Of a stretch of DNA of 64,000 nt, positions 2,328-58,440 are shown one piece after another. The notes beneath the pieces were generated by a model that was given only the letters and a program-made list of their open reading frames with translations, had not been told where the DNA came from and did not search any database. Each line of letters begins with the position of its first letter. Within the stretch, counting starts at the first letter, position 1. The position numbers and the translations under genes are program-made. The stretch lies in assembly GCA_965223295.1 (NCBI GenBank), contig CBDCWC010000003.1:896001-960000 (forward strand), given 5' to 3'. This DNA is from Nitrospirales bacterium. Its GTDB lineage: Bacteria > Nitrospirota > Nitrospiria > Nitrospirales > UBA8639.

Positions 2328-2639
2328 GTGAATATGTCGGATACCAGTCTTTCTCCGCAACGGTTACGTATATTGTTAGAACAGTTCAAAAAAGACCATG
2401 GAAAGTATTATCAGTTACGTGCCCTAGGCTATTTTGGTTCGTATGCCCGTGACGTGGCTTCGCCTGAAAGCGATGTTGATATTGTCTTCGATACGGATGC
2501 CCCAAACTTGTACATGACTGTCATGCTGAAACAAGACTTAGAAGAAACAATAGGTCGTCCCGTCGATGTGCTTCAACTACGCGGCTTGACAAACTCAAGA
2601 CTAAAAGCGCGTATCGAGAGGGAAGCAATCTATGTATGA
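2328..2639 (+). CDS. Minimal nucleotidyltransferase (MNT) antitoxin
   Basis: FGSYAR..SDVDI motif, about 100 aa, overlaps the HEPN gene. Confidence 0.9.
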   Translation: MNMSDTSLSPQRLRILLEQFKKDHGKYYQLRALGYFGSYARDVASPESDVDIVFDTDAPNLYMTVMLKQDLEETIGRPVDVLQLRGLTNSRLKARIEREAIYV

Positions 2640-3006
2640 CTCAGAGTTGCTTGTGGAAAAGCTGCAAACTCTGCTTGAGGCTTTAGAGCGCATCCCACGT
2701 CGCTTTTCTGTTATTGCCAGGCCTGAAGATTTTACTTCTAGTGATGAAGGAATCGACCGTATGGATGCTATTTGTATGATTCTTATTGCAGCAGGAGAAG
2801 AGATTAAGAATATTGATCAAAAAACTGAAGGACAATTATTAAGCCGATACCCTGATATTAAGTGGCGTGGTGTCATGGGAGTGCGTGATGTGTTAGCCCA
2901 CGGGTACTTTCAGGTGAATGCCGATCAACTATTTGATATTTGTCAAAACGATATTCCAGCATTGATCACAACGGTGAACAAAATGATTGATGAGATACAA
3001 AACTGA
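2632..3006 (+). CDS. HEPN/DUF86 ribonuclease toxin
   Basis: 'YPDIKWRGVMGVRDVLAHGYF' contains the Rx4H motif. Confidence 0.9.
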   Translation: MYDSELLVEKLQTLLEALERIPRRFSVIARPEDFTSSDEGIDRMDAICMILIAAGEEIKNIDQKTEGQLLSRYPDIKWRGVMGVRDVLAHGYFQVNADQLFDICQNDIPALITTVNKMIDEIQN

Positions 3007-8113: not shown

Positions 8114-8743
8114 CTAACTATCTTGTTCAGACGAACCTGTTAAAGCGGTCTGCAATTCCTCATACACTTGCATCAAACGCGAATCTTCTAAGCGATAGGC
8201 GAAAGCCAGGAGGATAACGCCACCTACCAACACGAGTAAACCCAAGGCTATCATTCCCATCCCCCAAAATATCCCCCCGACTGTTCCAAATCCTCCATCA
8301 ATCGCATACATGGCTAGAAATCCCAGCGTGCCCCCAATCACAAAAAGAAGCCAAATGGACGTCAGAATTGCAGAAGACCACGGGATTCGTTTGGATAATT
8401 GAAGTTCAAGCTGATCGTCCTGGAAGCGATAGTCCAGCGTTCCTTTCAAGGGCCATGCCGTTCGAAATCGTAAAGAAAACATTTTGTAATAAGGGCGAAT
8501 GACGATGGCTTGCTGATCCGCCACCCATCGAGCCACGCCATGAGGAAGCGGAATGGTACTGCTTGTTTTAAATATTCGAGGAAAGGAATTGTTTGGCTTG
8601 GGAAGTAAATCTTTGCGTCGGGCCAGTGGACATCCATAACGACAGGCCCAGGGCTTCAGCGTGGTGAATTGAAACCAGTCACCAATGACAAGGGCCAAAC
8701 CCATAACCAGAGCAAAAATACTGGGAAGCAACATAGGATTCAA
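8114..8743 (-). CDS. Hypothetical membrane protein
   Basis: 209-aa ORF with three hydrophobic segments. Confidence 0.7.
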   Translation of the reverse strand: MNPMLLPSIFALVMGLALVIGDWFQFTTLKPWACRYGCPLARRKDLLPKPNNSFPRIFKTSSTIPLPHGVARWVADQQAIVIRPYYKMFSLRFRTAWPLKGTLDYRFQDDQLELQLSKRIPWSSAILTSIWLLFVIGGTLGFLAMYAIDGGFGTVGGIFWGMGMIALGLLVLVGGVILLAFAYRLEDSRLMQVYEELQTALTGSSEQDS

Positions 8744-8795
8744 AACATATCACACGAAACCTTGAGACCACACGCAAGAAATTCATGAACTTTGA

Positions 8796-8825
8796 TTGAC
8801 TTCCATGTGATGCCTCTACTAGTAT
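8796..8825 (+). promoter_or_regulatory. Putative sigma70 promoter of the tRNA-fMet gene
   Basis: TTGACT (8796-8801), 18-nt spacer, TAGTAT (8820-8825), 5 nt before the tRNA. Confidence 0.5.
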
Positions 8826-8864
8826 CGATCCGCGGGGTGGAGCAGTCTGGTAGCTCGTTGGGCT

Positions 8865-9521
8865 CATTCCGTAGGATAATCTTGAGCACAAAGCTCAAAG
8901 GGGACATCGCAGAACAAACAGCCGTACTTCACGCTCTGAAGCATGGCTGGGGCGTTCTAAAACCACTAGGAGACCGATTGCCTTATGATCTGGTCTCTGA
9001 TGTTGGTGGGACGTTGGTGAAGGTCCAAGTCAAAGGAGCATGGTTCGATGAAAGTCGCGGCAACTTTATTGTGGACACTCGTCGAACAAAAACAAACCGT
9101 AGGAACATGGTTCGTGAGCCATATCTTCCATCGGATTTTGATTTTGCCCTTGCCTACCTTCAAGACTTTGACCTGTTCTATATATTCCCCGTTGAAGTGT
9201 TCATCAGTTATGCCAGTGAAATTCACCTGGTAGAAACTGACAAGCGGCAAAGAAAGCCACGGTCCGCTAAATACCGTAACGCTTGGGATCTCATCCTACA
9301 TTGGGCTGTACAGAAGGAAACTTCTGTATGAACACCTGTCAAATTCGGGGAAGCCACTAGCGGGGTAATCCCGAGCCAAGCTCTCTTAGTGCAAACAGCT
9401 GAGAGAGAAGGTGTAGAGACTTGATGGCAGGCACCCTAACGGCAGCGATGGCTGGCCGAGGGTGAAGGGAAAGTCCAGACCACAAACTGATCACTCAGGC
9501 AGCGGAAGCTGTAGTGGTACG
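8865..9521 (+). ncRNA. Group I self-splicing intron (657 nt) in the tRNA-fMet anticodon loop
   Basis: Follows U33 and ends in G. P1 GGCU|CA pairs with UGGGCU (9302-9307) giving a U.G at the splice site. P2 tacagaag-GAAA-cttctgta; P3 cctgtca/tggcagg; core elements aaattcgggg, aatcccgagc, gtagagact and aagtcc. Confidence 0.93.
8882..9331 (+). CDS. PD-(D/E)XK homing endonuclease, I-Ssp6803I-like, intron-encoded
   Basis: TTG start after an AGGA SD gives 149 aa: MSTKLKGDIAEQ..YDL..KVQVK..RRTKTNRR..EIHLVETDKRQRKPRS, which closely resembles the Synechocystis I-Ssp6803I sequence as I recall it. Confidence 0.9.
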   Translation: MSTKLKGDIAEQTAVLHALKHGWGVLKPLGDRLPYDLVSDVGGTLVKVQVKGAWFDESRGNFIVDTRRTKTNRRNMVREPYLPSDFDFALAYLQDFDLFYIFPVEVFISYASEIHLVETDKRQRKPRSAKYRNAWDLILHWAVQKETSV

Positions 9522-9584
9522 CATAACCCAAAGGTCGAGGGTTCAAATCCCTCCCCCGCAACCAAGAACATAGAATTGACTCTC

Positions 9585-9622
9585 AAGCCCTTGTCGGGGT
9601 CACCGACAAGGGCTTTTTTTTT
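9585..9622 (+). terminator. Rho-independent terminator after the tRNA
   Basis: aagcccttgtcgg-ggtca-ccgacaagggctt followed by a T tract. Confidence 0.9.
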
Positions 9623-12501: not shown

Positions 12502-15500
12502 ATGCCTACCATCTACATCTCCTCCACTTACGAAGACCTGAAAGACTATCGGCAGATCGTGTTCGAGACACTGAGAAAAAGCGGGTATGAAGTCAAGGCC
12601 ATGGAAGAGTACGTGGCCTCGGATCGGCGACCCCTGGATCAATGTCTCAGGGACGTCGAGGAAGCCGATCTCTACGTAGGCCTGTTTGCCTTTCGATATG
12701 GTTATGTGCCTCCTGAGGGGCATGGCAACGCGAACAATTTATCAATTACCGAACTGGAACTCCGGCGAGCCGAAGACCTCAACAAACCTTGCTTAACATT
12801 TGTGATGGACAACACCACACCTTGGGCTCGAACATTTGATGACGCACACACAGCTGAGGACAAGGGCGAACGCATTCAAGCCTTGCGCCAGAACTTGCTG
12901 AGAGAGAAGCTGTGTAGCACATTTTCATCACCCAATCAGCTAGCAACCCTTGTGCTGACCGCTGTGACGAATCACTTTAAAGATAGGGAAAAAACTGATC
13001 GTCCTATAGCCCCTTCCATTTCAAAATCTAAAGGATCAGAACTGGAAGACAAACCCGTCGCTCCGATAATAATCAATACCTTTCCAAATGAAGTGCCGAT
13101 TAAATTTTATGGCCGTACCAAGGAAATGGATGTTTTGCAAAGACATTTGGCAGATAATGTAAGCTGTTTGCTAACAGTCTATGGGAGAAAAGGTTGTGGT
13201 AAAACGACGACTGTTTGCAAGGTTTTACAAACGATGATTGAGGATAGCCAAAGTCATAGTAGCAAAGAGAGGACTTCTATAGACGGGATAGTGTTTGTTA
13301 AAAATCGAGAGTCTCAGCCTGTGAGTTGGTTGACGATTTTTTCAGAAATACAAAACCTTTTGCCAGATCAAGAGAAAAGCCAATGGGAAACACTTTTTCA
13401 GATACAGGAAATCCCTCTTCAAAAAAAAATAGAACAATTGTTAAAGATTATTTCGCAAAAACGAATTGTGGTATTTATAGATCCTTTTGGTCCAATGGTC
13501 GATCAGGTTAATGGAAGTATTCGGGATCCCGATTTGTCTGAGGCCCTTCAAACTCTTCTGGAGACCCATGGGCACAGAATTAAAATTATCCTAACTTTGG
13601 AAAGTCCGTTGACGAAACTGTCCATGGTTAAGCCCTCACGGCAAGCATTTATTAATCTAAAAGATGGCCTTGGTGAGATTGAGTCGGAAACCATGCTCAG
13701 AGACTCTGATCACGATGGCTCTATCGGGCTCCAGAAGGCAGATCCACAAGTCATTGGAGAAATCTGCACAAGATTAAGAGGAAATCCAAGAGCTTTGATC
13801 AAATTAACGACTCTACTTCGGGTGAATCAAAGTATGAGGTTGAGTGATGTTAGTAACCACACAAAAGATCTACTTCCTCAAGAAATACTGGATGACTTAG
13901 TTGGGCAGGTATTTAGAAGCTTAGATACGCATAGTCGTATGGTGCTCCAAAGCATAGCAATTTTTGGACAACCTATCCCCAGAGAGGCAGTTGAATGGGT
14001 TCTCCGCTCCCATATCTCCCAAGATGTATTACCCGACCTACTTAATTCTCTGGTGAATCGTCGTTTGGTTAAAATGACCACAAAATGTTTTTCCTTAGAC
14101 TATGATGATCGTCAGTATGTCCTTTCCACTATACCAAATGTTTTTGGACAAACTTCCAAAAATCAGAGCAGTCAGGATTTTACAAGGGAGGGTTTGGGTC
14201 GCCTTGCGCGCAAGTATTATAGGAGCAATCGGGTACCTCCAGAGCAATGGAAATTTTTTAGCGATTTAGACTGTTATTTAGCTGAATTTGAGCTATTGAT
14301 AGAAAGCCGTATCTTCGAAGATGCAGTACAAATCTTATTTGAAATTGAGAATTGGCTTTTAAAAAATGGGCGAGATGACACCGTTGCTAAACTCTATTCA
14401 CAGATAAATGAGGAATGCTTGGAAAGTGAATCCAAACTTCGATATGCCAATAAACTTGGTAACATATACCACCGGTTAGGTAAGTTGGAGAAAGCGATTG
14501 CTTATTATCAAAAGGGGTTGAACTATACGCAGCATTTGAAAGAAAGAGAGAGGAAACGAAATGCTGAATTTAGATATTTAAGTAATTTGGGCATTTGCCA
14601 TAAAGAAAGTGGTGATCTGGATCTTGCAATTGCCTATTGCCGACAGTCTTTACATCTTGCCCAAGAGTTGAAAGATACCTCAAAGCAGGCTCATGTATTA
14701 AATACACTAAGTGACTGCAGAGGAAATATAGGTGAGATTTCTCAGGCTATAGAGGCATGTGAAAAAACTTTAAGTCTGGCACAATCTTGTGGATCGGAGT
14801 GGCAAGCGGCCTTAGCTCTGACAAACCTTGGTTTATATCATGGAGAACTCTGTGCTTTTGAGAAAGCCGTAGGATACTCTCAAGAAGCACTTTCATTATC
14901 ACATCTTATAGAATATCGGTTGGGTGAGGGGGCTGCGTTAATCAATCTAGGAGAAATGAATCTTGTTCAAAAAAAGTTTTCTGAAGCAATGACTTACTTC
15001 AACAAAGCCACTCAACTTTCTGACACGATAAAGAGAGCTGAACTCCAACAGAAATCCAGGGTGGGATTGGCTCTAACGCATCTATACAATGGAACTATCA
15101 AGATAGCCAGTGATTATTTACGGGAAGCCTGTGTGTATGAAATAAGAGGGTTTGATTTTTATGCCCTGAGCATCCAAGGAATTGTTGCGTTTGTTCATGG
15201 GGAAAATGACCTGGCAAAAGACTCATTTCATAAAGCTATTACTTGTGGAGAACAGATGTTGAGACGAGAACCGCGTTTTTATCTTGCATGGCTTGGAAAA
15301 GGAATTGCCCATTCTGGATTGTCTATAATAGAAAGGGATGAGTCTCATGCCGATTTCGCCAAAAAAGCCTTTCAGAAAGGAAAATACATTAACCCCAATA
15401 TTGGGATAATGAAAAAAACACAAATGGTGCTTGGGAAACTTGAAGAAGCTACTCCTATCCAGTTTCGACATGACATACAAGAAATAACCGGAATGGCCAG

Positions 15501-15504
15501 CTAA
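12502..15504 (+). CDS. DUF4062 (TIR/NDT-like) - STAND-type P-loop NTPase - TPR protein
   Basis: 'IYISSTYEDLKDYR..RYGYVP..SITELE' N-domain; 'FYGR..E', Walker A GRKGCGKT and 'GNPRAL' motifs; C-terminal TPRs (SNLGICH, TNLGLYH, INLGEMN). Confidence 0.85.
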   Translation: MPTIYISSTYEDLKDYRQIVFETLRKSGYEVKAMEEYVASDRRPLDQCLRDVEEADLYVGLFAFRYGYVPPEGHGNANNLSITELELRRAEDLNKPCLTFVMDNTTPWARTFDDAHTAEDKGERIQALRQNLLREKLCSTFSSPNQLATLVLTAVTNHFKDREKTDRPIAPSISKSKGSELEDKPVAPIIINTFPNEVPIKFYGRTKEMDVLQRHLADNVSCLLTVYGRKGCGKTTTVCKVLQTMIEDSQSHSSKERTSIDGIVFVKNRESQPVSWLTIFSEIQNLLPDQEKSQWETLFQIQEIPLQKKIEQLLKIISQKRIVVFIDPFGPMVDQVNGSIRDPDLSEALQTLLETHGHRIKIILTLESPLTKLSMVKPSRQAFINLKDGLGEIESETMLRDSDHDGSIGLQKADPQVIGEICTRLRGNPRALIKLTTLLRVNQSMRLSDVSNHTKDLLPQEILDDLVGQVFRSLDTHSRMVLQSIAIFGQPIPREAVEWVLRSHISQDVLPDLLNSLVNRRLVKMTTKCFSLDYDDRQYVLSTIPNVFGQTSKNQSSQDFTREGLGRLARKYYRSNRVPPEQWKFFSDLDCYLAEFELLIESRIFEDAVQILFEIENWLLKNGRDDTVAKLYSQINEECLESESKLRYANKLGNIYHRLGKLEKAIAYYQKGLNYTQHLKERERKRNAEFRYLSNLGICHKESGDLDLAIAYCRQSLHLAQELKDTSKQAHVLNTLSDCRGNIGEISQAIEACEKTLSLAQSCGSEWQAALALTNLGLYHGELCAFEKAVGYSQEALSLSHLIEYRLGEGAALINLGEMNLVQKKFSEAMTYFNKATQLSDTIKRAELQQKSRVGLALTHLYNGTIKIASDYLREACVYEIRGFDFYALSIQGIVAFVHGENDLAKDSFHKAITCGEQMLRREPRFYLAWLGKGIAHSGLSIIERDESHADFAKKAFQKGKYINPNIGIMKKTQMVLGKLEEATPIQFRHDIQEITGMAS

Positions 15505-25179: not shown

Positions 25180-25629
25180 TTATACCACTTGCATCACTAA
25201 ATTGTTTAAATGTTCCATTCCAATACAGTCGAGAATGCAATAAGCACGATATTGAGAACCTTCTTTACCAATTTGAAAGGCGATGCTGGTTTTTTGACTA
25301 AACATCCAGATCTTTTCTGACTCCTTGGTCCATCCATCTCCCGTTATGGCCACTTGATGAGTATCGCCATAAGCCAGGCTAGCCATTTTTTCATCAAACA
25401 CAAAATTGATGCGGACAACTTTGCCTTGAGGTAACTGAAGCACATGTTTTGGACCATAAACTTTGCCGTTTTTATCCAGGAATCCCTGCTGATTGACTCG
25501 AACAGTTAATTCGAGATCAATTTGTTGAGATGTTGATGATGAGGCTAACGCCATTGGAAGCGAGACAAGACTCGTTGAAAATGTCAGGACCGTAGCCAAT
25601 GCGAAGATCTTACAGAAGTCTTTAATCAT
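25180..25629 (-). CDS. Secreted cupredoxin-like protein
   Basis: Signal peptide; 'DTHQV' His and a C-terminal 'YCILDCIGMEH' Cys-x3-Cys-x4-His motif; start MIKDF after an AAGGAG SD. Confidence 0.6.
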   Translation of the reverse strand: MIKDFCKIFALATVLTFSTSLVSLPMALASSSTSQQIDLELTVRVNQQGFLDKNGKVYGPKHVLQLPQGKVVRINFVFDEKMASLAYGDTHQVAITGDGWTKESEKIWMFSQKTSIAFQIGKEGSQYRAYCILDCIGMEHLNNLVMQVV

Positions 25630-25699
25630 GTGAAATTCTCCTTTAGAAAAGTGTCTAATGTTTATTCGTGATTGATAGACCTGTTCTCCTAGGATGGTC

Positions 25700-25972
25700 T
25701 TACCCAATCACATTTGGGCCGATGGCGCTGAGTTCATCTTGATGCTGACGAATGGTTTGCTTGTGAATCTGCTGTGCCTCTTGCGTATGAATACATTTTT
25801 GTTCGCAGGTTTCAACAGGAGTGTTTGGGGAGCAGTCGGAGCACCTCGTTGCTTCAAGGCCGCCATGCTCGGCGCCACGAAATACGTTAACTTCAAAAGT
25901 GACCTCACAGTTTTTCTGTGACACTGGACATTCCAGTAAGGTCTTGCTCTGTGGAACATGCTGTTTCATCAT
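25700..25972 (-). CDS. Small Cys-rich protein (possible metal binding)
   Basis: CP..C, CSDC and CEQKC motifs; AGGA SD. Confidence 0.6.
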   Translation of the reverse strand: MMKQHVPQSKTLLECPVSQKNCEVTFEVNVFRGAEHGGLEATRCSDCSPNTPVETCEQKCIHTQEAQQIHKQTIRQHQDELSAIGPNVIG

Positions 25973-26166: not shown

Positions 26167-26252
26167 CTTCGGCAACCCGGCTGTCAGGAATTATTCAGGC
26201 CTGATCCGTGGTTTTGCGTCCCGTCTTTCAACGGTTAGCCTTTTCGGGAAAG
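26167..26252 (-). ncRNA. c-di-GMP-I (GEMM) riboswitch
   Basis: Minus strand aaaGGCTAACCgttGAAAgacGGGACGCAAAaccacggatc..gacAGCCGGGTTGCCg fits the GEMM-I consensus (GNRA-capped P2, GACGCAAA junction, closing GGGTTGCC). Confidence 0.85.
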
Positions 26253-44963: not shown

Positions 44964-45833
44964 TCAACTCAAGACTGTCTGTACCGCCACGCCGATTTCG
45001 GCAGGGTTTTTTACGACAGTGACGCCTGCATCTTCCAGCGCGGCCATCTTATCGGCAGCCGTTCCTTTGCCACCGGTGATAATAGCTCCGGCGTGGCCCA
45101 TGCGACGGCCGGGAGGTGCGGTGATTCCTGCAATAAAGCTCACAACAGGCTTCGACATTTCTTGTTGGATGAATGCTGCCGCTTTTTCCTCAGCATCTCC
45201 ACCAATTTCTCCGATCATCACTACAGCTTCGGTTTCGTCATCTTCCTCAAACATGTGTAATAGATCAATATAGCCAGTGCCAATGATAGGATCGCCACCT
45301 ATTCCCACACAAGTGGTTTCACCAAGTCCTAAGTTCGTGAGCTGATTGACCGCTTCATAGGTCAACGTTCCGCTGCGTGAGATAACGCCCACGCGACCCT
45401 TTTTATGAATAAAGCCTGGCATGATGCCAATCTTGCATTCGTCTGCTGTGATAATCCCAGGGCAATTGGGACCAATAAGACGAGTGGCTCGCCCATGGAG
45501 AGCACGTTTCACCTTTACCATATCATTGACCGGAATACCTTCCGAGATACAGATGATGAGCCACACTCCAGCTTCAGCCGCTTCCAAAATCGCGTCGGCT
45601 GCAAATGGGGGAGGGACAAAGATCAACGACGTAGTCGCCTCCGTTTGCTTGACCGCATCACGCACTGAGTTAAAAACAGGGATCCCTTCGACTTCCTGCC
45701 CAGCCTTTCCGGGTGTCACTCCCGCGACAACCTGAGTACCATAGGCTTTACACTGCGTCGCATGAAACGATCCTTCTTTGCCCGTAATCCCCTGCACAAC
45801 CACTCGTGTATTTTTATTGACCAGAATACTCAT
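44964..45833 (-). CDS. sucD: Succinyl-CoA synthetase alpha subunit
   Basis: QGITG, GPNCPG and MGHAGA motifs. Confidence 0.97.
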
Positions 45834-45885
45834 ACGACGTCACCTTTCACCGATCAGAGATATAATTCCAATAAGAATAGAGATG

Positions 45886-47064
45886 TTATTTTTTCTTTTT
45901 TCGCAGCGCCACAATGCGTTGGGCGGCTTCCCACAGGTCAGCCACACCTTCAACTTTTAAGCCTGACTCAGCCAGCAGTTTTCGCCCCTCTTCGGCATTG
46001 GTCCCTTGAAGCCGAACCACCACGGGCAACTTGATGCCCACTTCCTTAGCCGCTTCGATCACACCATGAGCAATACGCTCACAACGCACGATCCCACCAA
46101 AAATATTAATGAAAATGCCTTTGACTTTTTTATCTTTCAGGAGGATACGAAATCCAGCCGCGACCGTTTCTTTAGTGGCGCCTCCACCAACATCCAGAAA
46201 GTTGGCTGGCTCTGAGCCAGCAAGCTTAATGACATCCATCGTCGCCATGGCTAACCCCGCACCATTGACCATACAACCAATGTCGCCATCCAATTTGACG
46301 TAATTCAGATTATGTTTGCCAGCCTCGATTTCCATGGGCTCTTCTTCATGGAGATCTCTGAATTTTTGCACATCTGGATGTTTATAGAGCGCATTATCAT
46401 CAAACGAAACTTTTCCATCCAACGCAATCAAACGCTTGTCGGTGGTAATCACCAAGGGGTTAATTTCGACCAACGCCGCATTTTTCTCCATGAACAAACG
46501 ATACAAATTATCCAACATTTGAAAGAAGGGCTTGACGACGGATGGCTCTAAATCGGGCAGACCCAACCCAAAGGCAAGGTTGCGCCCATTATAACTCTGA
46601 AACCCAATGGCTGGATCGATGGATTCTTTGAGAACTTTTTCTGGGGTCTGTTCGGCAACTTCTTCAATATCCATGCCGCCTTCTGTACTAGCAATAAACG
46701 TCGGGAATCCAGAATCCCGGTCAACCAACAAGCTAAGATATAGTTCTTTATCAATGCCGGCACCCTCTTCTATCAACAATCGTCTAACTTTTCGCCCTTT
46801 CGGACCAGTCTGATGGGTGACCAACGTCTTTCCAATAAGCTCGGTCACCAGCCCTGGAACCTCATCCCGATTTTTCGTGATCTTGACTCCACCGGCCTTT
46901 CCTCGTCCTCCAGCATGAATTTGTGCCTTCACAACATAGACAGGTGTCTCAAGTGCTGCCGCCCATTTTTCAGCAGCACGGACATTTTTTATCTCTTTAC
47001 CTTTGGGTACCGGAATGCCAAACTGCGCAAATACTTGCTTTGCCTGAAACTCATGAATATTCAT
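45886..47064 (-). CDS. sucC: Succinyl-CoA synthetase beta subunit
   Basis: 'MNIHEFQAK', '[14 protein letters not shown]' and 'NGAGLAM' motifs. Confidence 0.97.
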
Positions 47065-47108
47065 AATCGTCCTTTGTGTTTTTGGGAGTGTTGCAAGGCT
47101 TCGAGTTT

Positions 47109-47143
47109 CTACCTCCCTTTGTCCCTCCTTACAAAGGAGGGAA
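47109..47143 (-). repeat. REP-like repeat, family B
   Basis: ctacctccc..ccctccttacaaaggaggg. Confidence 0.8.
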
Positions 47144-47152
47144 ATATTATCT

Positions 47153-48733
47153 CTAAACTTGCCGCGTGTAGGCAGGCAACACCATCGGCGAGGTCAATCC
47201 ATTAGACGCATGATGACGTTTGGCTTCTGCCCGAAATTCCTTCACATGATCAAGAGTCAACGTACCTTGCGAAATTGACTTCGCTCGCTCAGCAGCCGTC
47301 TGACCAGCACGCTTACCATACACCATCAAATCCAAGAGGGAATTCCCCATCAGACGATTACGTCCATGCAGCCCACCGGATGCCTCACCAGCAACAAACA
47401 AATTGGGGGCTGGTGTTTCGCCTTTCACATCTATTTTGACCCCACCATTTTGATAGTGCAGTGTGGGATAAATTAAGACTGGATCTTTACGAATATCCAC
47501 CTGATACCGCTCATACTGCCGAACCATGGCAGGAAAATGCTTATCCAAGGTGCCGGGGCCATGTGCCACATCAAGCAAGGGCGTATCTAACCACACACCC
47601 ACACGTCCGGCCGCCGTTCGGACACCACGGCCTTCTTCACATTCTTTGATGATAGAGGATGAGACAACATCACGAGTATCCAACTCATTCACGAAACGAT
47701 CGCCTTGAGCATTCACCAAGTGCCCACCTTCGGAACGTATACCTTCCGTCACCAATGCGCCAACTAATTGCTCGGGATACACACCCCCTGATGGATGATA
47801 TTGAAACGTATCAATCTGCATCAGCGGCACTCCCATCCGATAAGCTAAGACCAAGGCATCTCCGGTGGCCCCATAATGGTTGCTCGTTGGAAATCCTTGA
47901 ATATGTAATCGCCCAATTCCACCCGTCGCAAGAATGACGGTTTTGGCCGCAACAACCACATACCGTTTATTATCTAAATCTTGTAAAACAGCTCCCGTAC
48001 AGGTACCCTTGCCATCACTCAACAGTTCTACCACTGCACCAAACTCTAAGAGCGGAATTTTCTGATTGATGACTTCGTCTTTTAGTACCCGCATGATTTC
48101 AAGTCCGGTATAATCCGAACAGGTCAACAAACGAGCCTTTGAACTACCGCCACCTTTTTTCACATGCAAATTGCCATCGGCTTGGCGGTCAAATAACACA
48201 CCTAACTCCAACAACCATTGTCCAATAGAAGGCCCTTCTTCAACCATCACCTTTAACAGGTCATGGTCGTTTTTCATATGACCACCTTTTAAGGTATCCA
48301 GAAAATGCTGAACGGGCGAATCATCTGGCGCAACCGCGATTTGCATGCCACCCTGGGCCATCACGGAATTGGAATCGCCTAACCGCAACTTTGTGGCCAA
48401 CAAGACATTTGAACCTGCAGCATGTGCATGGAGCGCTGCAGCACAACCTGCACCCCCGCCACCTACCACCAGCACATCTACTGAATATTTAGGTGTCAAA
48501 TCAAAATCGCTAGGAATAGGACTATCTCCTTCGAGAAGAGTCGCGACTTCCGTAACGGTTGACTGGCCAGCATTGGGACCAAATTTTATTGGCCGGTAGG
48601 CATGAGCCCGGTGATCAGGATGATATTTCTTGATGAGGGCATCTCGTTCAGATGGAGAGAGCTTCGGAAAGTCTATCGCGCGACGCGCCTCACGTGTCTG
48701 ATGAACGAGATCTTGTTGCGCGGTGATATCCAT
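47153..48733 (-). CDS. frdA: Fumarate reductase flavoprotein subunit
   Basis: GGGGAG, AQGG, QYHP, EGIR, HYQNGG and HGRNRL motifs; lies in the rTCA cluster. Confidence 0.85.
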   Translation of the reverse strand: MDITAQQDLVHQTREARRAIDFPKLSPSERDALIKKYHPDHRAHAYRPIKFGPNAGQSTVTEVATLLEGDSPIPSDFDLTPKYSVDVLVVGGGGAGCAAALHAHAAGSNVLLATKLRLGDSNSVMAQGGMQIAVAPDDSPVQHFLDTLKGGHMKNDHDLLKVMVEEGPSIGQWLLELGVLFDRQADGNLHVKKGGGSSKARLLTCSDYTGLEIMRVLKDEVINQKIPLLEFGAVVELLSDGKGTCTGAVLQDLDNKRYVVVAAKTVILATGGIGRLHIQGFPTSNHYGATGDALVLAYRMGVPLMQIDTFQYHPSGGVYPEQLVGALVTEGIRSEGGHLVNAQGDRFVNELDTRDVVSSSIIKECEEGRGVRTAAGRVGVWLDTPLLDVAHGPGTLDKHFPAMVRQYERYQVDIRKDPVLIYPTLHYQNGGVKIDVKGETPAPNLFVAGEASGGLHGRNRLMGNSLLDLMVYGKRAGQTAAERAKSISQGTLTLDHVKEFRAEAKRHHASNGLTSPMVLPAYTRQV

Positions 48734-48804
48734 TGGGCGAGATGGTAAACTTTTTACAATAACGTCTTGCGATACTCTTGATGACTCTCGTTATCCTGGG
48801 CTTT

Positions 48805-48862
48805 CTATCCCACCAAATTACTTGTCTCCTCTTCGGAGCCAAGCCCCTTACAAAGGGGAGGA
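48805..48862 (-). repeat. Long family-B repeat variant; inverted repeat of 49668-49726
   Basis: ccaccaaattacttgtctcctcttcggagccaagccccttacaaagg has its exact reverse complement on the other side of frdB. Confidence 0.85.
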
Positions 48863-48868
48863 GAGGAA

Positions 48869-49591
48869 TTAGGAATTGGTAGAAGCTGTAGTGTTTTGCA
48901 ATTCTTCATCTGAGAGTTGCAGAATCCGATCCCATTCTTCCTGATACTCCCCATCAGCGATTTTTTTGATCCGAGTCGCCAGGCCTTCGGGTTTCTCTGT
49001 AAAATGCACACCCTGAGCACGGCTAGCATAGACGGCTACAAGATTGGGAGCGATATCGGCAATACAGACCGGTGTGCACATCCCACACATCACACAATCC
49101 ATGAACATTTCTGAGACAGCTTTAAAATCCCCAAACACCGCTTTCCAAACACCTTCCCGCACATCTATTTTCTGAGGGCAGGCCTCTGTGCAGGCGTTAC
49201 AATTTCGACACAATGGAGCCTCAGGATACAGTTCGAACAAATCCTGTTTTGGATCTTTCAGTTCTTGCAAGTCATAGGTTGCCTTTCGTGCGGGAAAAGC
49301 TGGCATGAATGAAAACGACATGCCTTCTTCAACTGCCATTGAACAGGCTAAACAGGTTTTGACTTTAGGGTCATCTTTTGTTCGGTAATAGGTGGCACAA
49401 GCACCACAAAAGCCACCCAAACACCCTGCCCCTCGCAGCACTTCTTTTCCGGCATACCACATGGCTTTCATCAATGTGATGCCAGCCGGAACTTGAAAAG
49501 GCTTGCCTTCTATTTCAACTTTGACCATTTCCGGTTGAATTTCGCTGGCTTGCTCAGTGAATTGTTGAGGCTTATGAGAGTCATTCGCCAT
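48869..49591 (-). CDS. frdB: Fumarate reductase iron-sulfur subunit
   Basis: 2Fe-2S motif CLGGFCGAC..C and two CxxCxxCxxxC 4Fe-4S motifs. Confidence 0.82.
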   Translation of the reverse strand: MANDSHKPQQFTEQASEIQPEMVKVEIEGKPFQVPAGITLMKAMWYAGKEVLRGAGCLGGFCGACATYYRTKDDPKVKTCLACSMAVEEGMSFSFMPAFPARKATYDLQELKDPKQDLFELYPEAPLCRNCNACTEACPQKIDVREGVWKAVFGDFKAVSEMFMDCVMCGMCTPVCIADIAPNLVAVYASRAQGVHFTEKPEGLATRIKKIADGEYQEEWDRILQLSDEELQNTTASTNS

Positions 49592-49667
49592 AGTATGATT
49601 ACTTTAACAAAGTTTTTTGGATCGTTGCTTAGACAATGGAGCTATTTCCCGACGTTCGTAGTCCTTA

Positions 49668-49726
49668 GTTTCCTCACCTTTGTAAGGGGCTTGGCTCCGA
49701 AGAGGAGACAAGTAATTTGGTGGAGT
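49668..49726 (+). repeat. Long family-B repeat variant
   Basis: cctttgtaaggggcttggctccgaagaggagacaagtaatttggtgg. Confidence 0.85.
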
Positions 49727-49785
49727 AGAGTCATACAAATAAGCACAACGAGGCTAAGGAAGCGCTATGCGCCAAACTTACGCTT

Positions 49786-49820
49786 CTACCTCCCCTTGCC
49801 CCTCCTTACAAAGGAGGGAG
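49786..49820 (-). repeat. REP-like repeat, family B
   Basis: ctacctccccttgcccctccttacaaaggaggg; inverted relative to the copy at 49668. Confidence 0.8.
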
Positions 49821-49837
49821 CTCAGGTATATTCACGC

Positions 49838-52084
49838 TTAATTTAACGCGTTGAGCGCAGAGCCGGCTCTGAACCAGGCTATTTGGGCTTCGGTCATACT
49901 ATGATTCGCTTGAATTGTGACGTCTTGCCCATCTTTCTTATGAATTATCACCGACACGGGTTTTCCTGGAGCTAAATCCTTTAGACTTGTGACACTCACC
50001 TGATCTTCTTGCTCGATCTGATCGTAGTCTGCCGGATTCGCAAAGGTCATAGGAAGGATGCCCTGCTTCTTCAAATTCGTTTCATGGATCCGGGCAAAGC
50101 TTTTGGTAAGCACAGCCAGGACGCCAAGAAAACGAGGACTCATCGCGGCATGCTCTCGACTACTCCCTTCCCCGTAATTTTCATCCCCGACGACAAAAGA
50201 TCCAATGCCGTTAGCTTTATAATCACGCGCAATCGCTGCGGGCGCCAAGTTCTTTTCTCCGGTGCGCACATTATTGGCTTTTCCCGCTTCACCTGTGAAT
50301 GCATTATTCGCGCCCAAGAACATATTGTCGCTAATCTTGTCGAGATGCCCACGGAACTTGAGCCATGGACCTGCAGGAGAAATATGATCTGTGGTCGTCT
50401 TGCCTTTCGTTTTCAGCAAAATGGTGAGCTTCTCGAAATCATTCCCATTCCATCGTGGAAATGGTTGCAGTAACTGCAGCCGCTCACTGGTCGGAGGAAG
50501 ATCAACTTCCAAACCTTCACCATTTTCTGCCGGCGCCACAAATCCTTCTTCACCTTTGGCAAATCCTTTGCTGGGCAATTCGTCCCCTTGAGGCGCTTCT
50601 AATTTAATTTCTTTGCCGTCAGCCGTCTTGATCGTATCATTCACAGGATCAAAACCTAAGTCACCAGTCAAAGCATAGGCGGTCACCACTTCAGGGCTAG
50701 CAAGAAACGATAACGTGTCAGGGATGCCATCATTCCGTCCAGGGAAATTTCGGTTAAAGGTACTCACAATTGAATCAGCTTTGCCTTTGACCCCATCCGC
50801 CCGCTTCCATTGTCCAATACATGGTCCACAGGCATTCGCCAACACGGTCGCACCCATCTGCTCAAAGGTTTCCATGAACCCATCACGTTTCATAGTATGA
50901 AAAATACGTTCTGAGCCAGGCGAAACTAAGAACGCCGTCTTCGCTTTGAGTCCAGCCTTTAATCCTTGTTTGGCAATATGCGCCGAACGTCCAATATCTT
51001 CATAGGAAGAATTCGTGCAGCTTCCTAACAAGGTGGCTTTGAGTTCGACAGGATAACCTTTCTCTTTGGCTTCTGCCCGCAATTTCGAAATTGGGCGGGC
51101 AAGGTCTGGGGAATGCGGCCCTACGACATGTGGTTCCAGAGTCGAGAGATCAATCTCGACGATCTCATCATAATATTTTTCTGGTGATTGGTAGACTTCT
51201 GGGTCAGCCACTAATAGATCTTTATTGGCTTCTGCTAATTTCGCGATGTCCTCTCTCTCGGTGATATTCAAATACTCCACCATCTTTTGATCGAAAGGAA
51301 AGACGGAAGTCGTGGCACCCAATTCAGCACCCATATTTGTAATCGTGCCCTTCCCTGTAGCACTGATGGTTTCTGCGCCAGGACCAAAATATTCTACAAT
51401 CTTATTGGTCCCGCCTTTGACGGTCAGTTTTCCGCAAATATAGAGAATCACATCCTTGGGAGAAGCCCACCCATTGAGTTTTCCCGTAAGTTTCACACCG
51501 ATCAATTTGGGATGCAGCACTTCCCACGGCAAACCGGCCATCACTTCACCTGCATCGGCTCCACCGACACCAATCGCGAGCATGCCTAATCCGCCGCCAT
51601 TGGGTGTATGAGAATCAGTTCCGATAATGAGTCCGCCTGGGAACGCATAGTTTTCAAGCACCACTTGGTGAATAATCCCTGCTCCTGGCTTCCAAAATCC
51701 AATGCCATACTTCTTCGCTGCAGATTCCAAGAAATTGTAGACTTCGCGGTTTTCGTTATTGGCAACCATGAGATCTTTTTCGGAGCCCATTTCAGCCCGA
51801 ATGAGATGATCACAATGAATCGTGCTTGGGACGGCTGCTTTCTTCTTCCCAGCTTGAATAAACTGCAACATGGCCATCTGGGCAGTGGCATCTTGCATGG
51901 CCACTCGGTCAGGGCGAAGCGCCAACATAGCTTTTCCACGTTCCCAGGTTTGGGTATCAAAATTATCCGCATGGCTGACCAGAATTTTTTCCGCCAAGGT
52001 TAAAGGCCGCCCGAATTTTTTTCGGGCTTTTTCCACCGTTGGCCCCATTGAAGCATAGAGTTTTTTGACCATATCTACTGACAT
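49838..52084 (-). CDS. acn: Aconitate hydratase (mitochondrial-type)
   Basis: 'MQDATAQMA', HCDH, GSCTN, ACGPC and TTDHISPAG motifs. Confidence 0.95.
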   Translation of the reverse strand: MSVDMVKKLYASMGPTVEKARKKFGRPLTLAEKILVSHADNFDTQTWERGKAMLALRPDRVAMQDATAQMAMLQFIQAGKKKAAVPSTIHCDHLIRAEMGSEKDLMVANNENREVYNFLESAAKKYGIGFWKPGAGIIHQVVLENYAFPGGLIIGTDSHTPNGGGLGMLAIGVGGADAGEVMAGLPWEVLHPKLIGVKLTGKLNGWASPKDVILYICGKLTVKGGTNKIVEYFGPGAETISATGKGTITNMGAELGATTSVFPFDQKMVEYLNITEREDIAKLAEANKDLLVADPEVYQSPEKYYDEIVEIDLSTLEPHVVGPHSPDLARPISKLRAEAKEKGYPVELKATLLGSCTNSSYEDIGRSAHIAKQGLKAGLKAKTAFLVSPGSERIFHTMKRDGFMETFEQMGATVLANACGPCIGQWKRADGVKGKADSIVSTFNRNFPGRNDGIPDTLSFLASPEVVTAYALTGDLGFDPVNDTIKTADGKEIKLEAPQGDELPSKGFAKGEEGFVAPAENGEGLEVDLPPTSERLQLLQPFPRWNGNDFEKLTILLKTKGKTTTDHISPAGPWLKFRGHLDKISDNMFLGANNAFTGEAGKANNVRTGEKNLAPAAIARDYKANGIGSFVVGDENYGEGSSREHAAMSPRFLGVLAVLTKSFARIHETNLKKQGILPMTFANPADYDQIEQEDQVSVTSLKDLAPGKPVSVIIHKKDGQDVTIQANHSMTEAQIAWFRAGSALNALN

Positions 52085-52152
52085 AAGCGTTCTCCCGATT
52101 TGAGTTCAATGTTCAAGCCGAGGAATAAACACCATCGGCTTTACTGTCTCTC

Positions 52153-53979
52153 CTATTTCAGTTTTGGTACTTCTCGCCGCTTGGGTGAAGCATAATTGAC
52201 TAAATAATCGAACAGACGAATGAGCCGACTGCCTTGACGTTTTTGATCTGTCCAGTGACCAATCATCCCTATTGTTCGAGCCAAGATAAAGAAGCCGTTT
52301 AAACTGTCGACTGGGAACCCAATATCCACCAATACCGCAGCCATTGTGCCATCGACATTCAGGATCAAATTATCTTTTTTCGCGGCGGTGATTTTTTCAA
52401 CTTCCAGTGCAAAGTCTAGATGAGGAGTTTTGATTCCAAGACTTTTGACATGGCCAACCAGTTCTTTCACACGCTTATCCGGATTTTTCAAGCTTTTGAC
52501 CCTATGCCCAATACCTGGAACCGGACCAACATTCGCTTTCATATAAACAAGAAATTCATCAACCGCCATCTTGTTATCAATCGCATATTTAAACCACCGG
52601 CCTGCATCGGTGACCGCCCCGCCAAAACGTGGCCCAATCATGATCATTCCAGCCGCCACGGCTTGCGAGAGGCCTATGCCAGCACAGGCTGCTATGACGG
52701 TCGTTAACGCACCACTGACACAGGGTCCATGGTCAGCGGACAACATAATAATCCGCTTAATGATTTCGGCTTCTTGTTTGGAAACGAGTCGGTTGTCCCA
52801 CAATAATCCAATAATGTGCGGGATATCGTACCCAGCATTAATCAGTTCAGAAGCTGGATACCCTTGATAGAGAGGTTCATCCCCACGGTCATCACTGATC
52901 GTGGAGCGAATAAGAGGCGCCACTAAGACTTCACCGTCTTTTTTCGCTTCGGCGACCGTTTTCGGAAGCCGTGGCACATCGGCAGGCGCCAAATCCGGAA
53001 TGGGTTTGGCTGCTCCAGTCTTCAACAACTCTTCATGGGTGGCTTTAATAGCAGGGCCCAAGGCCCCAAAGGTCTCTGGAACAATCGCACCAGATTTTTT
53101 TAACGCCTCTGATTTTGCACGGGCCGACCCTTCGCCTTTTAACCCTTCTTTCGCACCGGCATGGCCAAATTTCATGCCTTTCGGCAGGCTTTCCTGACAA
53201 AAACCTGAGACCACCGCCAACAGTTTAATCCGGCGTTTCTTGGCGCCGTACCATTCAGCAGCACGCTCTTCTAAATCCCCGCCCATTTCTCCAACAATCA
53301 CGACGGCCTTCGTCTGCGGATCGTTTTCAAACATTTCTAAATAACTGACGTAATCAGTTCCTGGATAGGCGTCGCCACCGATTCCAATAGCCGTCGTAAT
53401 CCCATCCGCAAACTGAGAACAGATCCAGATAATTTCGTTAGATAGTCCGCCTGATTTTGTAATCACGCCAAAGGAGCCAGGACGATACAGCTTACAGGCT
53501 GTCAGATTATCAAATGCCCCACCAATCACACCTAAGCGACATTCTCCAGCAGACACCACACCGATAGAAGAGGGCCCATTAAAAACTTTTCCCAATTTCC
53601 TGGCATGTTTTCCAAGAAGTTTGGCATCTTTTTCAGGAACTCCTTCGGTAATCATAGAGACTGTGTGGATTTTGGGATCATTCAGCGCATCCATCGTGCC
53701 TTCGTAGGCTCGATTCGCACCGATATACACCAAGCTGGTATTAATTTCAGGATGATTAGCTGTGGCTTCAGCCACAGTTTTATAAATGGGAATAGCCACC
53801 AATTCTGTGCCGCACACAATTTCATTGGTTTTTCCAGCATCTGGCGGATACACAAAGGCAGAGACATTCAACGGTTGCTTAATCATATAGCGAAACTCCG
53901 CCATCCGACGGGCAGCATTGACACCAGCCACACCACCCTGAATAACGACATGCGTATCTTTCGTGGCAAGAATACTCAT
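52153..53979 (-). CDS. aclA: ATP-citrate lyase alpha subunit
   Basis: SCS-alpha-like domain (FGHAGA) fused to a citrate-synthase-like domain (DHGP, GIGHR, NVDG). Confidence 0.93.
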   Translation of the reverse strand: MSILATKDTHVVIQGGVAGVNAARRMAEFRYMIKQPLNVSAFVYPPDAGKTNEIVCGTELVAIPIYKTVAEATANHPEINTSLVYIGANRAYEGTMDALNDPKIHTVSMITEGVPEKDAKLLGKHARKLGKVFNGPSSIGVVSAGECRLGVIGGAFDNLTACKLYRPGSFGVITKSGGLSNEIIWICSQFADGITTAIGIGGDAYPGTDYVSYLEMFENDPQTKAVVIVGEMGGDLEERAAEWYGAKKRRIKLLAVVSGFCQESLPKGMKFGHAGAKEGLKGEGSARAKSEALKKSGAIVPETFGALGPAIKATHEELLKTGAAKPIPDLAPADVPRLPKTVAEAKKDGEVLVAPLIRSTISDDRGDEPLYQGYPASELINAGYDIPHIIGLLWDNRLVSKQEAEIIKRIIMLSADHGPCVSGALTTVIAACAGIGLSQAVAAGMIMIGPRFGGAVTDAGRWFKYAIDNKMAVDEFLVYMKANVGPVPGIGHRVKSLKNPDKRVKELVGHVKSLGIKTPHLDFALEVEKITAAKKDNLILNVDGTMAAVLVDIGFPVDSLNGFFILARTIGMIGHWTDQKRQGSRLIRLFDYLVNYASPKRREVPKLK

Positions 53980-54014
53980 TGATCCGATCTCCTAATTTCT
54001 CAAGTTCAAGTAGT

Positions 54015-57576: not shown

Positions 57577-58440
57577 TCAAGCGGACAGGTCATAACTAGA
57601 GTGTTCTGGTGTTGGTTGATAATAGGCACAGGGCGGTGTTCCCCGTAGCGCGTCATGTGGGCGGTGTTCATTGTAGATGGTCATCCACTCGGACGTGAGT
57701 TCCCGCACTTCCTCTAAACTCCGAAACAGATAGAGATTCAGCACTTCATTCCGATAGGTGCGATTGAATCGTTCAATAAATGCATTCTGTGTGGGACAAC
57801 CGGGTTGAATGTGATAGATCAACACGCGATTGGCTTTTCCCCAATCTTTTAGTGCCTGTGAGAGAAATTCTGGTCCGTTATCAACCCGAATCATGTGAGG
57901 TAACTCCCGCTCAGTCTTCAAGCGGTCCAACACGCGGATAATCCGTTCAGCTCTTAGAGAGGTATCAATCTCAATCGCCAAGACCTCCCGATTGAAGTCA
58001 TCGAGGATATTGAAGGTGCGAAACCGCGTGCCGTGATACAAGGTATCGCTCATGAAGTCGGCTGACCACACCTCATTGGGACCTTCTGGCACAAACACCG
58101 GCCAGGAAGGACGCTTGGGCAGCTGGCGTCTGGTGCGACGAGGCTGATTGTGTCCTAACTGCCGATAGACGCGGTACACCCGTTTGTGATTCCAGACATG
58201 TCCGAGGACTCGCAATCGCCGGATATATTTCCAGATGCCCCAGCGCGGGTACTGCTCCACTAACTGATTCAGGGCCTCAATAATTTCCTGATCACGGATC
58301 TGCCAATCAACGGGCGCTTGGTAATACGCCGACCGAGAAAATTTGAGAGCCACACACCCTCGTGTGATCGAGACGCCATGTGTCTCTTGTAGGGACTGAA
58401 TGGCCTCCCGTTTCTCCGCCGGCGTTAGAGCTTTTTTTCG
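57577..58440 (-). CDS. IS3 transposase OrfB (reached by -1 frameshift)
   Basis: WSADF, DNGPEF and 'QNAFIERFN' DDE motifs. Confidence 0.9.
   Translation of the reverse strand, partial: RKKALTPAEKREAIQSLQETHGVSITRGCVALKFSRSAYYQAPVDWQIRDQEIIEALNQLVEQYPRWGIWKYIRRLRVLGHVWNHKRVYRVYRQLGHNQPRRTRRQLPKRPSWPVFVPEGPNEVWSADFMSDTLYHGTRFRTFNILDDFNREVLAIEIDTSLRAERIIRVLDRLKTERELPHMIRVDNGPEFLSQALKDWGKANRVLIYHIQPGCPTQNAFIERFNRTYRNEVLNLYLFRSLEEVRELTSEWMTIYNEHRPHDALRGTPPCAYYQPTPEHSSYDLSA

Follow-up and report, generated by a model that had tools for sequence, protein, structure and literature searches.

A tRNA-fMet gene that is split in its anticodon loop by a group I intron, with a gene for an endonuclease of the I-Ssp6803I family lodged inside the intron, lies on the forward strand of a 64,000-nt stretch of DNA from a Nitrospirales bacterium (contig CBDCWC010000003.1, positions 896,001 to 960,000, of assembly GCA_965223295.1). 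This whole stretch, which we call the window, was the subject of an earlier note made from its letters alone, which the present analysis follows up. We are confident, at a probability of roughly 0.85, that the element is a group I homing intron with its endonuclease gene and that it interrupts the only initiator tRNA gene of its host. The element is real and, as its patterns of conservation suggest, probably active; that the window copy splices and cleaves, and that such introns homed recently between species of the host genus, we infer by analogy with characterised group I introns and with I-Ssp6803I.

The split initiator tRNA gene

Run in intron mode, ARAGORN reads window positions 8831-9564 (+) as one 77-nt tRNA-Met(cat) with a 657-nt intron inside, the splice junction being gggct-intron-cataa, that is, between U33 and C34 (bases 2 and 3 of the anticodon loop). 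The intron falls in identical columns in all 36 aligned homologues. As CAU opens both the intron and exon 2, four cuts are possible from the sequence alone; the cut between U33 and C34 alone leaves a U just ahead of the 5' splice site and a terminal G just ahead of the 3' one, and both of these bases are invariant across the 36 homologues. Both in the sequence and in the ARAGORN drawing, the joined exons show C1xA72, A11:U24 and an anticodon stem closed by three G:C pairs, which are hallmarks of a bacterial initiator tRNA. Exon 1 is 97-100% identical to the 5' halves of the uninterrupted tRNA-fMet genes found in 37 genomes of the genus, and exon 2 is 100% identical to the 3' halves in 35 of these and 98% identical in the remaining two (G048 and G058). 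The default mode of ARAGORN reports no tRNA anywhere in the window, which is a limitation of the tool, the tRNA gene being present; the expectation of the earlier note that standard annotation would miss the tRNA and call a false 179-aa open reading frame (ORF) is thereby borne out on both counts, as that ORF exists (Table 1).

The locus is flanked by a candidate sigma-70-like promoter and by a hairpin with a T run that resembles an intrinsic terminator, so that it appears to form a transcription unit by itself. Taken singly, the promoter match is weak and not significant, a scan giving three sites against 1.7 expected; the intergenic stretch that holds it is 95.4% identical in the genus relative G063.

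Ribozyme structure

The Rfam model RF00028 (Intron_gpI) matches 9282-9491 with 62.3 bits against a gathering score of 50 (E 2.1e-13). The helices were hand-drawn on the window sequence, and their 66 pairs were then counted on the alignment of the 36 homologues, in which 95.8% of the cells hold standard pairs, versus 83.9% in shuffles and 33-43% with the partners slid by 1-3 columns. Drawing from one of the aligned sequences favours the structure over the slid controls, a bias of which compensatory changes are free. These are abundant: 42 of the 66 pairs changed on both sides, including 5/6 in P3, 6/6 in P6, 5/6 in P8 and 4/4 in each of P9a and P9b, and none of 500 shuffles reaches any of the five pairing measures. 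P7, which is pseudoknotted with P3, is invariant and hence uninformative for covariation. At the 5' splice site the wobble pair U8864·G9304 is U·G in all 36 sequences, and the terminal G9521 is likewise an invariant column. In the P1 extension (P1a), which closes the loop holding the ORF, 84.9% of the cells are paired and five of the seven pairs changed on both sides. Judged by these covariation counts, the ribozyme appears clearly to be under selection. A minimum-free-energy fold of the whole precursor did not reproduce the group I architecture and was kept for spotting local hairpins.

The endonuclease gene

The ORF in the P1 loop of the intron specifies a protein that aligns by phmmer with chain A of PDB entry 2OST (I-Ssp6803I) over residues 2-148 (E 1.5e-67), with identity at 105 of 147 positions (about 71%, by hand count on the alignment). 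The Pfam family PF11645 (PDDEXK_5) matches with 174.2 bits against a cut-off of 26.1 (E 1.8e-51), covering profile positions 1-137 of 138; NCBIfam gives no endonuclease family at E values up to 0.1. Residues E11, D36, V50 and K51 are invariant among 30 sequences and Q49 is conserved in at least 90% of them, all five being identical in the 2OST alignment; they are taken as the PD-(D/E)XK site of I-Ssp6803I, with presumed catalytic roles for E11, D36, Q49 and K51. The true start is most likely TTG 8882, to judge from the alignment: it sits 5 nt past a Shine-Dalgarno-like AGGA (8873-8876), and in each of the 36 aligned homologues the same column is occupied by a start codon (21 ATG, 10 TTG and 5 GTG).

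The 3' end of the gene is embedded in the ribozyme, its last ~13 codons overlapping the 3' strand of P1a, the internal guide sequence and P2, and its stop codon (TGA 9329-9331) starting on the final base of P2. Many homologues lack this stop, and their frame extends to about 177 codons. Compared with the closest homologue (L008), the ratio of non-synonymous to synonymous divergence (dN/dS) is 0.108, from 15 synonymous and 6 non-synonymous differences over 137 codons, and the deeper comparisons give 0.05-0.09 in the six with a computable synonymous divergence (dS) among 13 made. Such ratios indicate that the endonuclease gene is under purifying selection. The earlier note had seen both tRNA exons, a U33/..G/CAU junction, elements of a group I core and an intact 149-aa PD-(D/E)XK ORF resembling I-Ssp6803I at this locus; the intron mode of ARAGORN, the Rfam match with covariation across P1-P9, and the 2OST and PF11645 matches support each of these readings.

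Table 1. Features of the split tRNA-fMet locus in window coordinates
Feature	Position	Strand	Basis or remark
179-aa mechanical ORF through exon 1	8792-9331	+	endonuclease ORF over-extended at the N-terminus, no separate gene
Candidate sigma-70-like promoter, TTGACT-18 nt-TAGTAT	8796-8825	+	9/12 matches; 5 nt before the tRNA
tRNA-fMet exon 1, positions 1-33, U33 last	8831-8864	+	ARAGORN, intron mode
P1, 5' strand	8862-8866	+	pairs with guide sequence 9302-9306; 96.1% of cells paired
Group I intron, 657 nt, omega G at 9521	8865-9521	+	RF00028, ARAGORN, alignment of 36 homologues
P1a (P1 extension), 5' strand	8871-8877	+	contains AGGA 8873-8876; pairs with 9293-9299; closes the ORF loop
Homing endonuclease gene, I-Ssp6803I/PDDEXK_5 family, 149 codons + TGA	8882-9331	+	phmmer, Pfam, conservation of the start column
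Ribozyme core	9293-9521	+	hand-drawn helices and covariation counts; Rfam match 9282-9491
P1a, 3' strand	9293-9299	+	
Guide sequence	9302-9306	+	
P2	9308-9329	+	GAAA loop
P3	9335-9340/9426-9431	+	
P4	9345-9350/9369-9374	+	
P5	9353-9355/9364-9366	+	
P6	9381-9386/9402-9407	+	
P7	9416,9418-9421/9472-9476	+	
P8	9432-9437/9459-9464	+	
P9	9479-9483/9514-9518	+	
P9a	9487-9498	+	
P9b	9500-9511	+	
tRNA-fMet exon 2, anticodon CAU through encoded CCA	9522-9564	+	ARAGORN, intron mode
Intrinsic-terminator-like hairpin + T run	9585-9622 (hairpin 9585-9615)	+	13 pairs, 8 G-C, loop 5, TTTTTTT

Host genome and dependence on splicing

The locus lies within a 1.94-Mb contig of a genome of 3 contigs and 3.78 Mb that is rated 100% complete. 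Forty-eight other tRNA genes occur in this genome, two of them with the anticodon CAT, of which, by tRNA identity rules, one looks like elongator Met and one like Ile2. Elsewhere in the genome there is neither an uninterrupted initiator anticodon arm nor a second match to the tRNA-fMet exons, and RF00028 and PF11645 have one match each genome-wide. As a genome listed as 100% complete holds no other initiator tRNA gene, the initiator tRNA must come from the split gene, and on this gene count the splicing of the window copy must presumably work.

The host, a bacterium of the nitrite-oxidiser type, is a member of the Nitrospirales and not a cyanobacterium; the earlier note, pointing to a Nitrospirota-type reductive tricarboxylic acid (rTCA) cluster, had likewise called the genome non-cyanobacterial. 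Records labelled Nitrospirales or Nitrospirae show synteny with the window over the upstream gene and the tRNA locus (L008, 89.5% identity over 8150-9565; L060, 73-79%). The rTCA cluster itself, of the ATP-citrate-lyase type, is present in the window (44967-55211, minus strand) with genes for succinyl-CoA synthetase, a fumarate-reductase-like flavoprotein with its Fe-S subunit, aconitase and two subunits of ATP-citrate lyase. The Pfam family Photo_RC has no match in the complete genome, a Synechococcus control being positive.

Occurrence within the genus and probable recent movement

Among 49 other genomes of the genus, the intron is present at the homologous locus in three: G063, with 96% DNA identity across all 734 nt; G043, with 88-93% identity and the intron split over two contig ends; and G009, in which the intron is 344 nt long, 306 nt of the endonuclease gene having been deleted internally, while the ribozyme stays above the Rfam cut-off at 60.1 bits. 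A survey of relatives for intron-minus alleles, which the earlier note had proposed, finds an uninterrupted tRNA-fMet gene in 37 of the 49 (five of these were checked with ARAGORN), so that the anticodon arm of uninterrupted alleles, the candidate target of the enzyme, is available in as many genomes. The remaining nine are without a complete gene; eight of these genomes are 59-87% complete and G024 is listed at 90%. G062 has an intact, uninterrupted tRNA-fMet gene and, at a distance of 1.7 kb from it and immediately behind an unrelated gene, the last ~100 nt of the intron fused to a decayed exon 2 (L068, 1500-1644); this fragment is a remnant of an earlier intron-bearing copy. The full, endonuclease-deleted, remnant and empty forms taken together match the cycle of invasion, decay and loss that is predicted for homing elements.

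Two further loci, L069 (G024, 1163-1208) and L072 (G012, 1501-1546), were rejected as introns, as was a 57-nt "intron" called by ARAGORN in L069. They are 46-nt 3' halves of tRNA-fMet beside unrelated sequence, running from the anticodon loop to the CCA end, the copy in G012 lying 7.3 kb from the intact gene. These copies look like direct or attachment-site repeats left by an element integrated in the tRNA gene.

Divergence from the genus relatives makes it probable, though less assured than the core description, that the intron moved recently within the genus. The endonuclease gene has a dS of 0.178 versus G063, the gene directly upstream 1.23 and five rTCA genes 0.76-1.16; six of the eight comparison genes fall at 0.76-1.23, a contrast drawn from these eight genes. 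The upstream gene is 75-80% identical to that of G063; identity then climbs to 90-100% between about 8700 and 9564 and is lost immediately past the tRNA, where the downstream sequence is unalignable. The same tendency is seen in G043 (intron 88-93%, rTCA cluster 75-81%) and G009 (intron 86-89%, rTCA cluster 74-79%). The simplest reading, which the data suggest, is that the intron and a short flanking tract were exchanged between species of the genus after these had diverged; homing with co-conversion would yield just such an exchange.

Distribution beyond the genus and phylogeny of the endonuclease

Scanning one genome per species for 185,579 species with patterns derived from the endonuclease, which detect close relatives only, we recovered 56 homologous loci in representative genomes. 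By record title, 13 of these are from Cyanobacteriota, 12 from Nitrospirota, six each from Bacteroidota and phyla of the Patescibacteria group, five from Acidobacteriota, four from Gammaproteobacteria, three from Chloroflexota, two each from Methylomirabilota and Actinomycetota, and one each from Bacillota and Deltaproteobacteria, with one unclassified. Most of the 56 loci come from metagenome bins, and some labels may hence be wrong. With 43 of the 56 labelled as non-cyanobacterial, homologues are common outside the cyanobacteria, and the find is less surprising and less exceptional than the earlier note had implied.

According to ARAGORN, 33 loci have the layout of the window, with a tRNA-Met(cat) and a 643-693-nt intron containing the endonuclease gene; four more share the gene-in-intron layout with the isotype miscalled, two of which (L027 and L062) align as tRNA-fMet. 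In 12 loci (L022, L029, L030, L033, L034, L036, L037, L042, L045, L048, L053 and L056; ten cyanobacterial and two from Bacteroidota, at ~1000-1950 in each locus) the intron has no ORF and is 240-340 nt long, and the endonuclease gene stands free, some 80 nt past exon 2; RF00028 scores above its cut-off in four of the five intron-bearing loci tested. Six loci give no call, their sequence being below full length and the BLAST matches stopping at its end. The one remaining locus, L061 (1346-1926, in an Anabaena record), has an uninterrupted tRNA-Met(cat) followed by a diverged gene, whose product is a 50% identical endonuclease homologue on a long tree branch. Signs of decay are found in several endonuclease genes: L012 (codon 49) and L037 (codon 128) have in-frame stops within the gene body and four more loci a stop only near the 3' end, whereas the shortened ORFs of L059 and L062 (136 and 115 aa) with their split tblastn matches, and the 38% protein versus 77% DNA identity of L063, suggest that these three are probably frame-shifted.

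Protein identity to the window endonuclease is 96% for L008 and 77-84% for L010, L012, L014, L015, L017 and L018, while the cyanobacterial loci reach 70-74% for full-length matches and up to 76% for partial ones. In a maximum-likelihood tree of 51 endonucleases, from which the partial or frame-shifted L025, L053, L056, L059, L060 and L062 were left out, the window sequence pairs with L008 (support 100/100). Phylum labels are clustered on this tree, though not cleanly, with 20 changes versus 35.3 in shuffles and a minimum of 14, and the Nitrospirota need at least four changes on its starred branches. Two Methylomirabilota records and one of Patescibacteria nest in a starred clade with Nitrospirota, and a Heliobacteriaceae-labelled record pairs with one of Blastocatellales (100/99). 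The approximately unbiased (AU) test rejects a single clade of the ten Nitrospirota rows (p 0.026, log-likelihood difference 48.6), a group that is defined by label but was tested after inspection of the tree. These results support transfer between phyla in general, with bin contamination as the main alternative for individual cases. As the backbone is poorly supported and the tree unrooted, no donor phylum or direction can be named. Hence, the cross-phylum transfer proposed in the earlier note stands in so far as the tree is not simply host-like, but the recent history of this particular copy is one within the genus.

In search of a vector, we found no tblastn match to the endonuclease in a plasmid collection. 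From a phage collection came 19 records, none of which reaches 60% identity or covers 80% of the protein; the 15 listed are at 32-36%. A single-protein search of IMG/VR had no match, and an alignment-based search found four loci (L077-L080) with 52-57% identity over residues 1-138, none of them in an intron. A close copy on a known vector thus turned up in none of these three collections. In L077-L080 the homologue sits between an upstream tRNA and a tRNA-Met(cat) starting about 10 nt after the ORF; in L077 and L078 the anticodon of this upstream tRNA is one for a stop codon (tta or tca), while in L079 and L080 the tRNA is seen by Rfam only, with no anticodon call.

RNA-level hints

In the 17 rows recorded as RNA and in run X3, whose RNA label is a guess, no more than 5-9% of the words sampled from the stretch are present. 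Four runs, three of these and X19, were mapped as contigs; contigs drop rare forms, and parts of the stretch that they leave uncovered carry no meaning. A 686-nt contig of X3 carries 9271-9521 followed by 8867-9300, its ends overlapping by 30 nt, and is thus a closed cycle of ~655 nt in which G9521 is joined to intron base 3. Other X3 contigs join exon 1 directly to exon 2, and none of the X3 pieces listed crosses an exon-intron border. Circularisation is a known side reaction of group I introns, and the X3 contigs hint at splicing followed by circularisation in a relative of the window copy. The metatranscriptome X1 yields contigs of the ribozyme part and a form skipping 383 nt of the ORF; ligated-exon contigs in X1 and in the metatranscriptome X5 were set aside, being indistinguishable from the uninterrupted genes of other organisms. 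Contigs of X19 that are at least 99% identical cover all 30 bins of the stretch; X19 is possibly the source sample and so lends no independent support to the assembly. It holds the window form, a G009-type deleted form (skipping 8889-9196) and uninterrupted alleles together.

Proposed mechanism and alternative explanations

By analogy with the characterised systems, the locus would be transcribed from its own promoter into a precursor of ~740 nt. In this precursor, P1 would arise by pairing of the guide UGGGC (9302-9306) with the last bases of exon 1 and the first of the intron, placing the U8864·G9304 wobble at the splice site; a guanosine-initiated transesterification followed by attack after G9521 would then join the exons into a normal 77-nt initiator tRNA. 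The P1 loop holds the 149-codon PD-(D/E)XK endonuclease gene, whose ribosome-binding site falls within the P1 extension helix and whose 3' end also serves as guide sequence and P2. Its product would be expected to cleave the anticodon region of uninterrupted tRNA-fMet genes, and repair from an intron-bearing copy would convert the recipient allele (homing).

Several points weigh against this picture of an active, recently mobile intron. The RNA evidence consists of contigs; the RNA label of X3 is itself a guess, and its intron is only ~85% identical to that of the window. The start codon is TTG and its ribosome-binding site is predicted to be paired, so that expression may be low. As for recent movement, only 15 synonymous differences underlie the dS of the endonuclease gene, part of the identity in the tract is expected from constraint on tRNA and ribozyme, and aclA (dS 0.22) and aclB (0.43) lie far below their rTCA neighbours in the comparison with G063, so that low divergence is not unique to the intron.

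An unlikely competitor is that the intron is ancestral to the genus, inherited vertically, lost repeatedly and immobile, with the endonuclease kept for some other role such as help in splicing. Synteny of the upstream gene in G063 and G009, both of which have the intron, and in L060 makes the locus itself old; purifying selection on the protein is also compatible with a domesticated function, and decay is visible in G009 and G062. However, an ancestral intron needs many independent precise losses to account for the clean uninterrupted genes, and it leaves unexplained both an endonuclease dS that is 4-7x below that of the adjacent gene and the five rTCA genes and the sharp edges of the high-identity tract. 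Moreover, G009 keeps its ribozyme after deletion of the endonuclease gene, so that the protein is not needed for the intron to be retained.

Direct acquisition of the window copy from a cyanobacterium, suggested by the type element being cyanobacterial (PMC1995217), is very unlikely and finds no support here: its closest homologues belong to the same genus and to other Nitrospirota, 10 of the 13 cyanobacterial loci have their endonuclease gene outside the intron, and the unrooted endonuclease tree with its weak backbone allows no cyanobacterial donor to be named. Still less credence attaches to an artefact or a dead gene, be it a chimeric assembly with foreign DNA or an unspliced tRNA pseudogene. 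Most related records are indeed metagenome bins, in which short contigs can be misassigned, but the position of the locus within a 1.94-Mb contig of a three-contig genome, the intron at the same locus in three other genomes of the genus, its standing as the sole initiator tRNA gene and the selection on both ribozyme and protein speak against an artefact or dead gene.

A broader scenario can be offered tentatively, at clearly less than even odds. The endonuclease occurs in three arrangements: free-standing beside a tRNA-Met (in phage arrays), just past an intron that has no ORF (in Nostocales and some Bacteroidota) and in P1 (in most other phyla). These might be living stages in the capture of an intron by an endonuclease ("collaborative homing"). 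The I-Ssp6803I-type intron could on this scenario be a parasite of initiator tRNA genes across bacteria, moving at present among Nitrospirales and between phyla that share habitats, with phages as the likely carriers between phyla.

Other features of the window

Upstream of an ORF on the minus strand (25183-25707) for which Pfam gives no match, there is a c-di-GMP-I riboswitch aptamer (26168-26250, minus strand), which scores 57 bits where the gathering score is 35. A repeat of ~35 nt at ~49782-49820, in the spacer between the aconitase and Fe-S protein genes, has 17 copies in G063 (86-97% identity) and several in G009 and G043, and is like a small interspersed repeat family of the genus. The window further encodes a HepT-like ribonuclease (2632-3003, plus strand), a protein of 1000 aa that combines DUF4062 with an AAA ATPase domain and TPR repeats (12502-15501, plus strand) and an rve-type integrase (57580-58353, minus strand).

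Implications

If the element works as proposed, translation initiation in this host would depend on a ribozyme that removes 657 nt from its only initiator tRNA precursor. Default tRNA finders make such a genome appear to be without an initiator tRNA, and gene calling can give the endonuclease as many as 30 spurious residues at its N-terminus. The distribution of the loci corrects the textbook view of the endonuclease and its close homologues as essentially cyanobacterial. The genus offers a natural series (full, endonuclease-deleted, remnant and empty) for the study of the homing cycle in uncultured nitrifiers, the family a wide choice of naturally occurring variants of a small enzyme whose target is long, and the intron tract a marker of recent gene flow between species.

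Comparison with known systems

The closest characterised counterpart is the tRNA-fMet intron of Synechocystis sp. PCC 6803, with which the earlier note had rightly compared the element: the host gene and the U33/C34 insertion site are the same (class fMet.2Ug; bioRxiv 10.1101/2020.01.27.920355), and the sizes are nearly equal, with 657 nt and 149 codons in the window versus 655 nt and 150 codons in Synechocystis, where the ORF encodes I-Ssp6803I, described as the first PD-(D/E)XK homing endonuclease (PMC1995217). The two proteins align from end to end and belong to the same Pfam family. According to PMC3384342, I-Ssp6803I acts as a tetramer on a 23-bp pseudo-palindromic target and cuts tRNA-fMet genes without the intron at the point where the intron inserts. 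The window element differs in its Nitrospirota host and its TTG start, and its activity is predicted from sequence. One anticodon-stem pair, corresponding to two presumed target positions, is U-A in the window and C-G in, for example, L015, L019, L027 and L028.

The class fMet.2Ug is one of four classical tRNA intron classes in a survey of 5,292 split bacterial tRNA genes (bioRxiv 10.1101/2020.01.27.920355), from which, citing an intron database for the four classical tRNA introns, the assignment to subgroup IC3 also comes. A patchy distribution of PF11645 that suggests horizontal transfer was already noted in PMC3424549. Full-text searches gave us no printed report of the intron in Nitrospira or other non-cyanobacterial phyla, though the phylum counts of the bioRxiv survey may include such cases. 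The introns of tRNA-Leu(UAA) in cyanobacteria and plastids, tRNA-Ile(CAU) in Azoarcus and tRNA-Arg(CCU) are likewise small, self-splicing and placed in the anticodon loop, but they occupy other tRNAs and loop positions, and the classical examples are without an endonuclease gene. The J3/4-P4 and P7 motifs of other bacterial tRNA group I introns probably resemble those of the window.

The ORF-less tRNA-fMet introns of Nostocales and other cyanobacteria (L030, L033, L036, L037, L053, L056 and six others) have the same exons and site and a ribozyme core homologous to that of the window, with 75-77% identity over ~250-270 nt, but they are shorter and have the I-Ssp6803I-like gene past exon 2 and not in P1. 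This arrangement resembles the "collaborative homing" layout known from two phages (PMC3984707); for tRNA-fMet we found no literature report of such a layout. The viral L077-L080 (1370-2015) encode a protein of the same PDDEXK_5 family beside a tRNA-Met(cat), but it is free-standing in tRNA arrays on putative phage contigs and without a group I intron, unlike that of the window. The element of the window is of a known kind, seemingly new to the literature on this host lineage, and shows every defining feature tested: a group I intron, of the fMet.2Ug class, with a PDDEXK_5 endonuclease.

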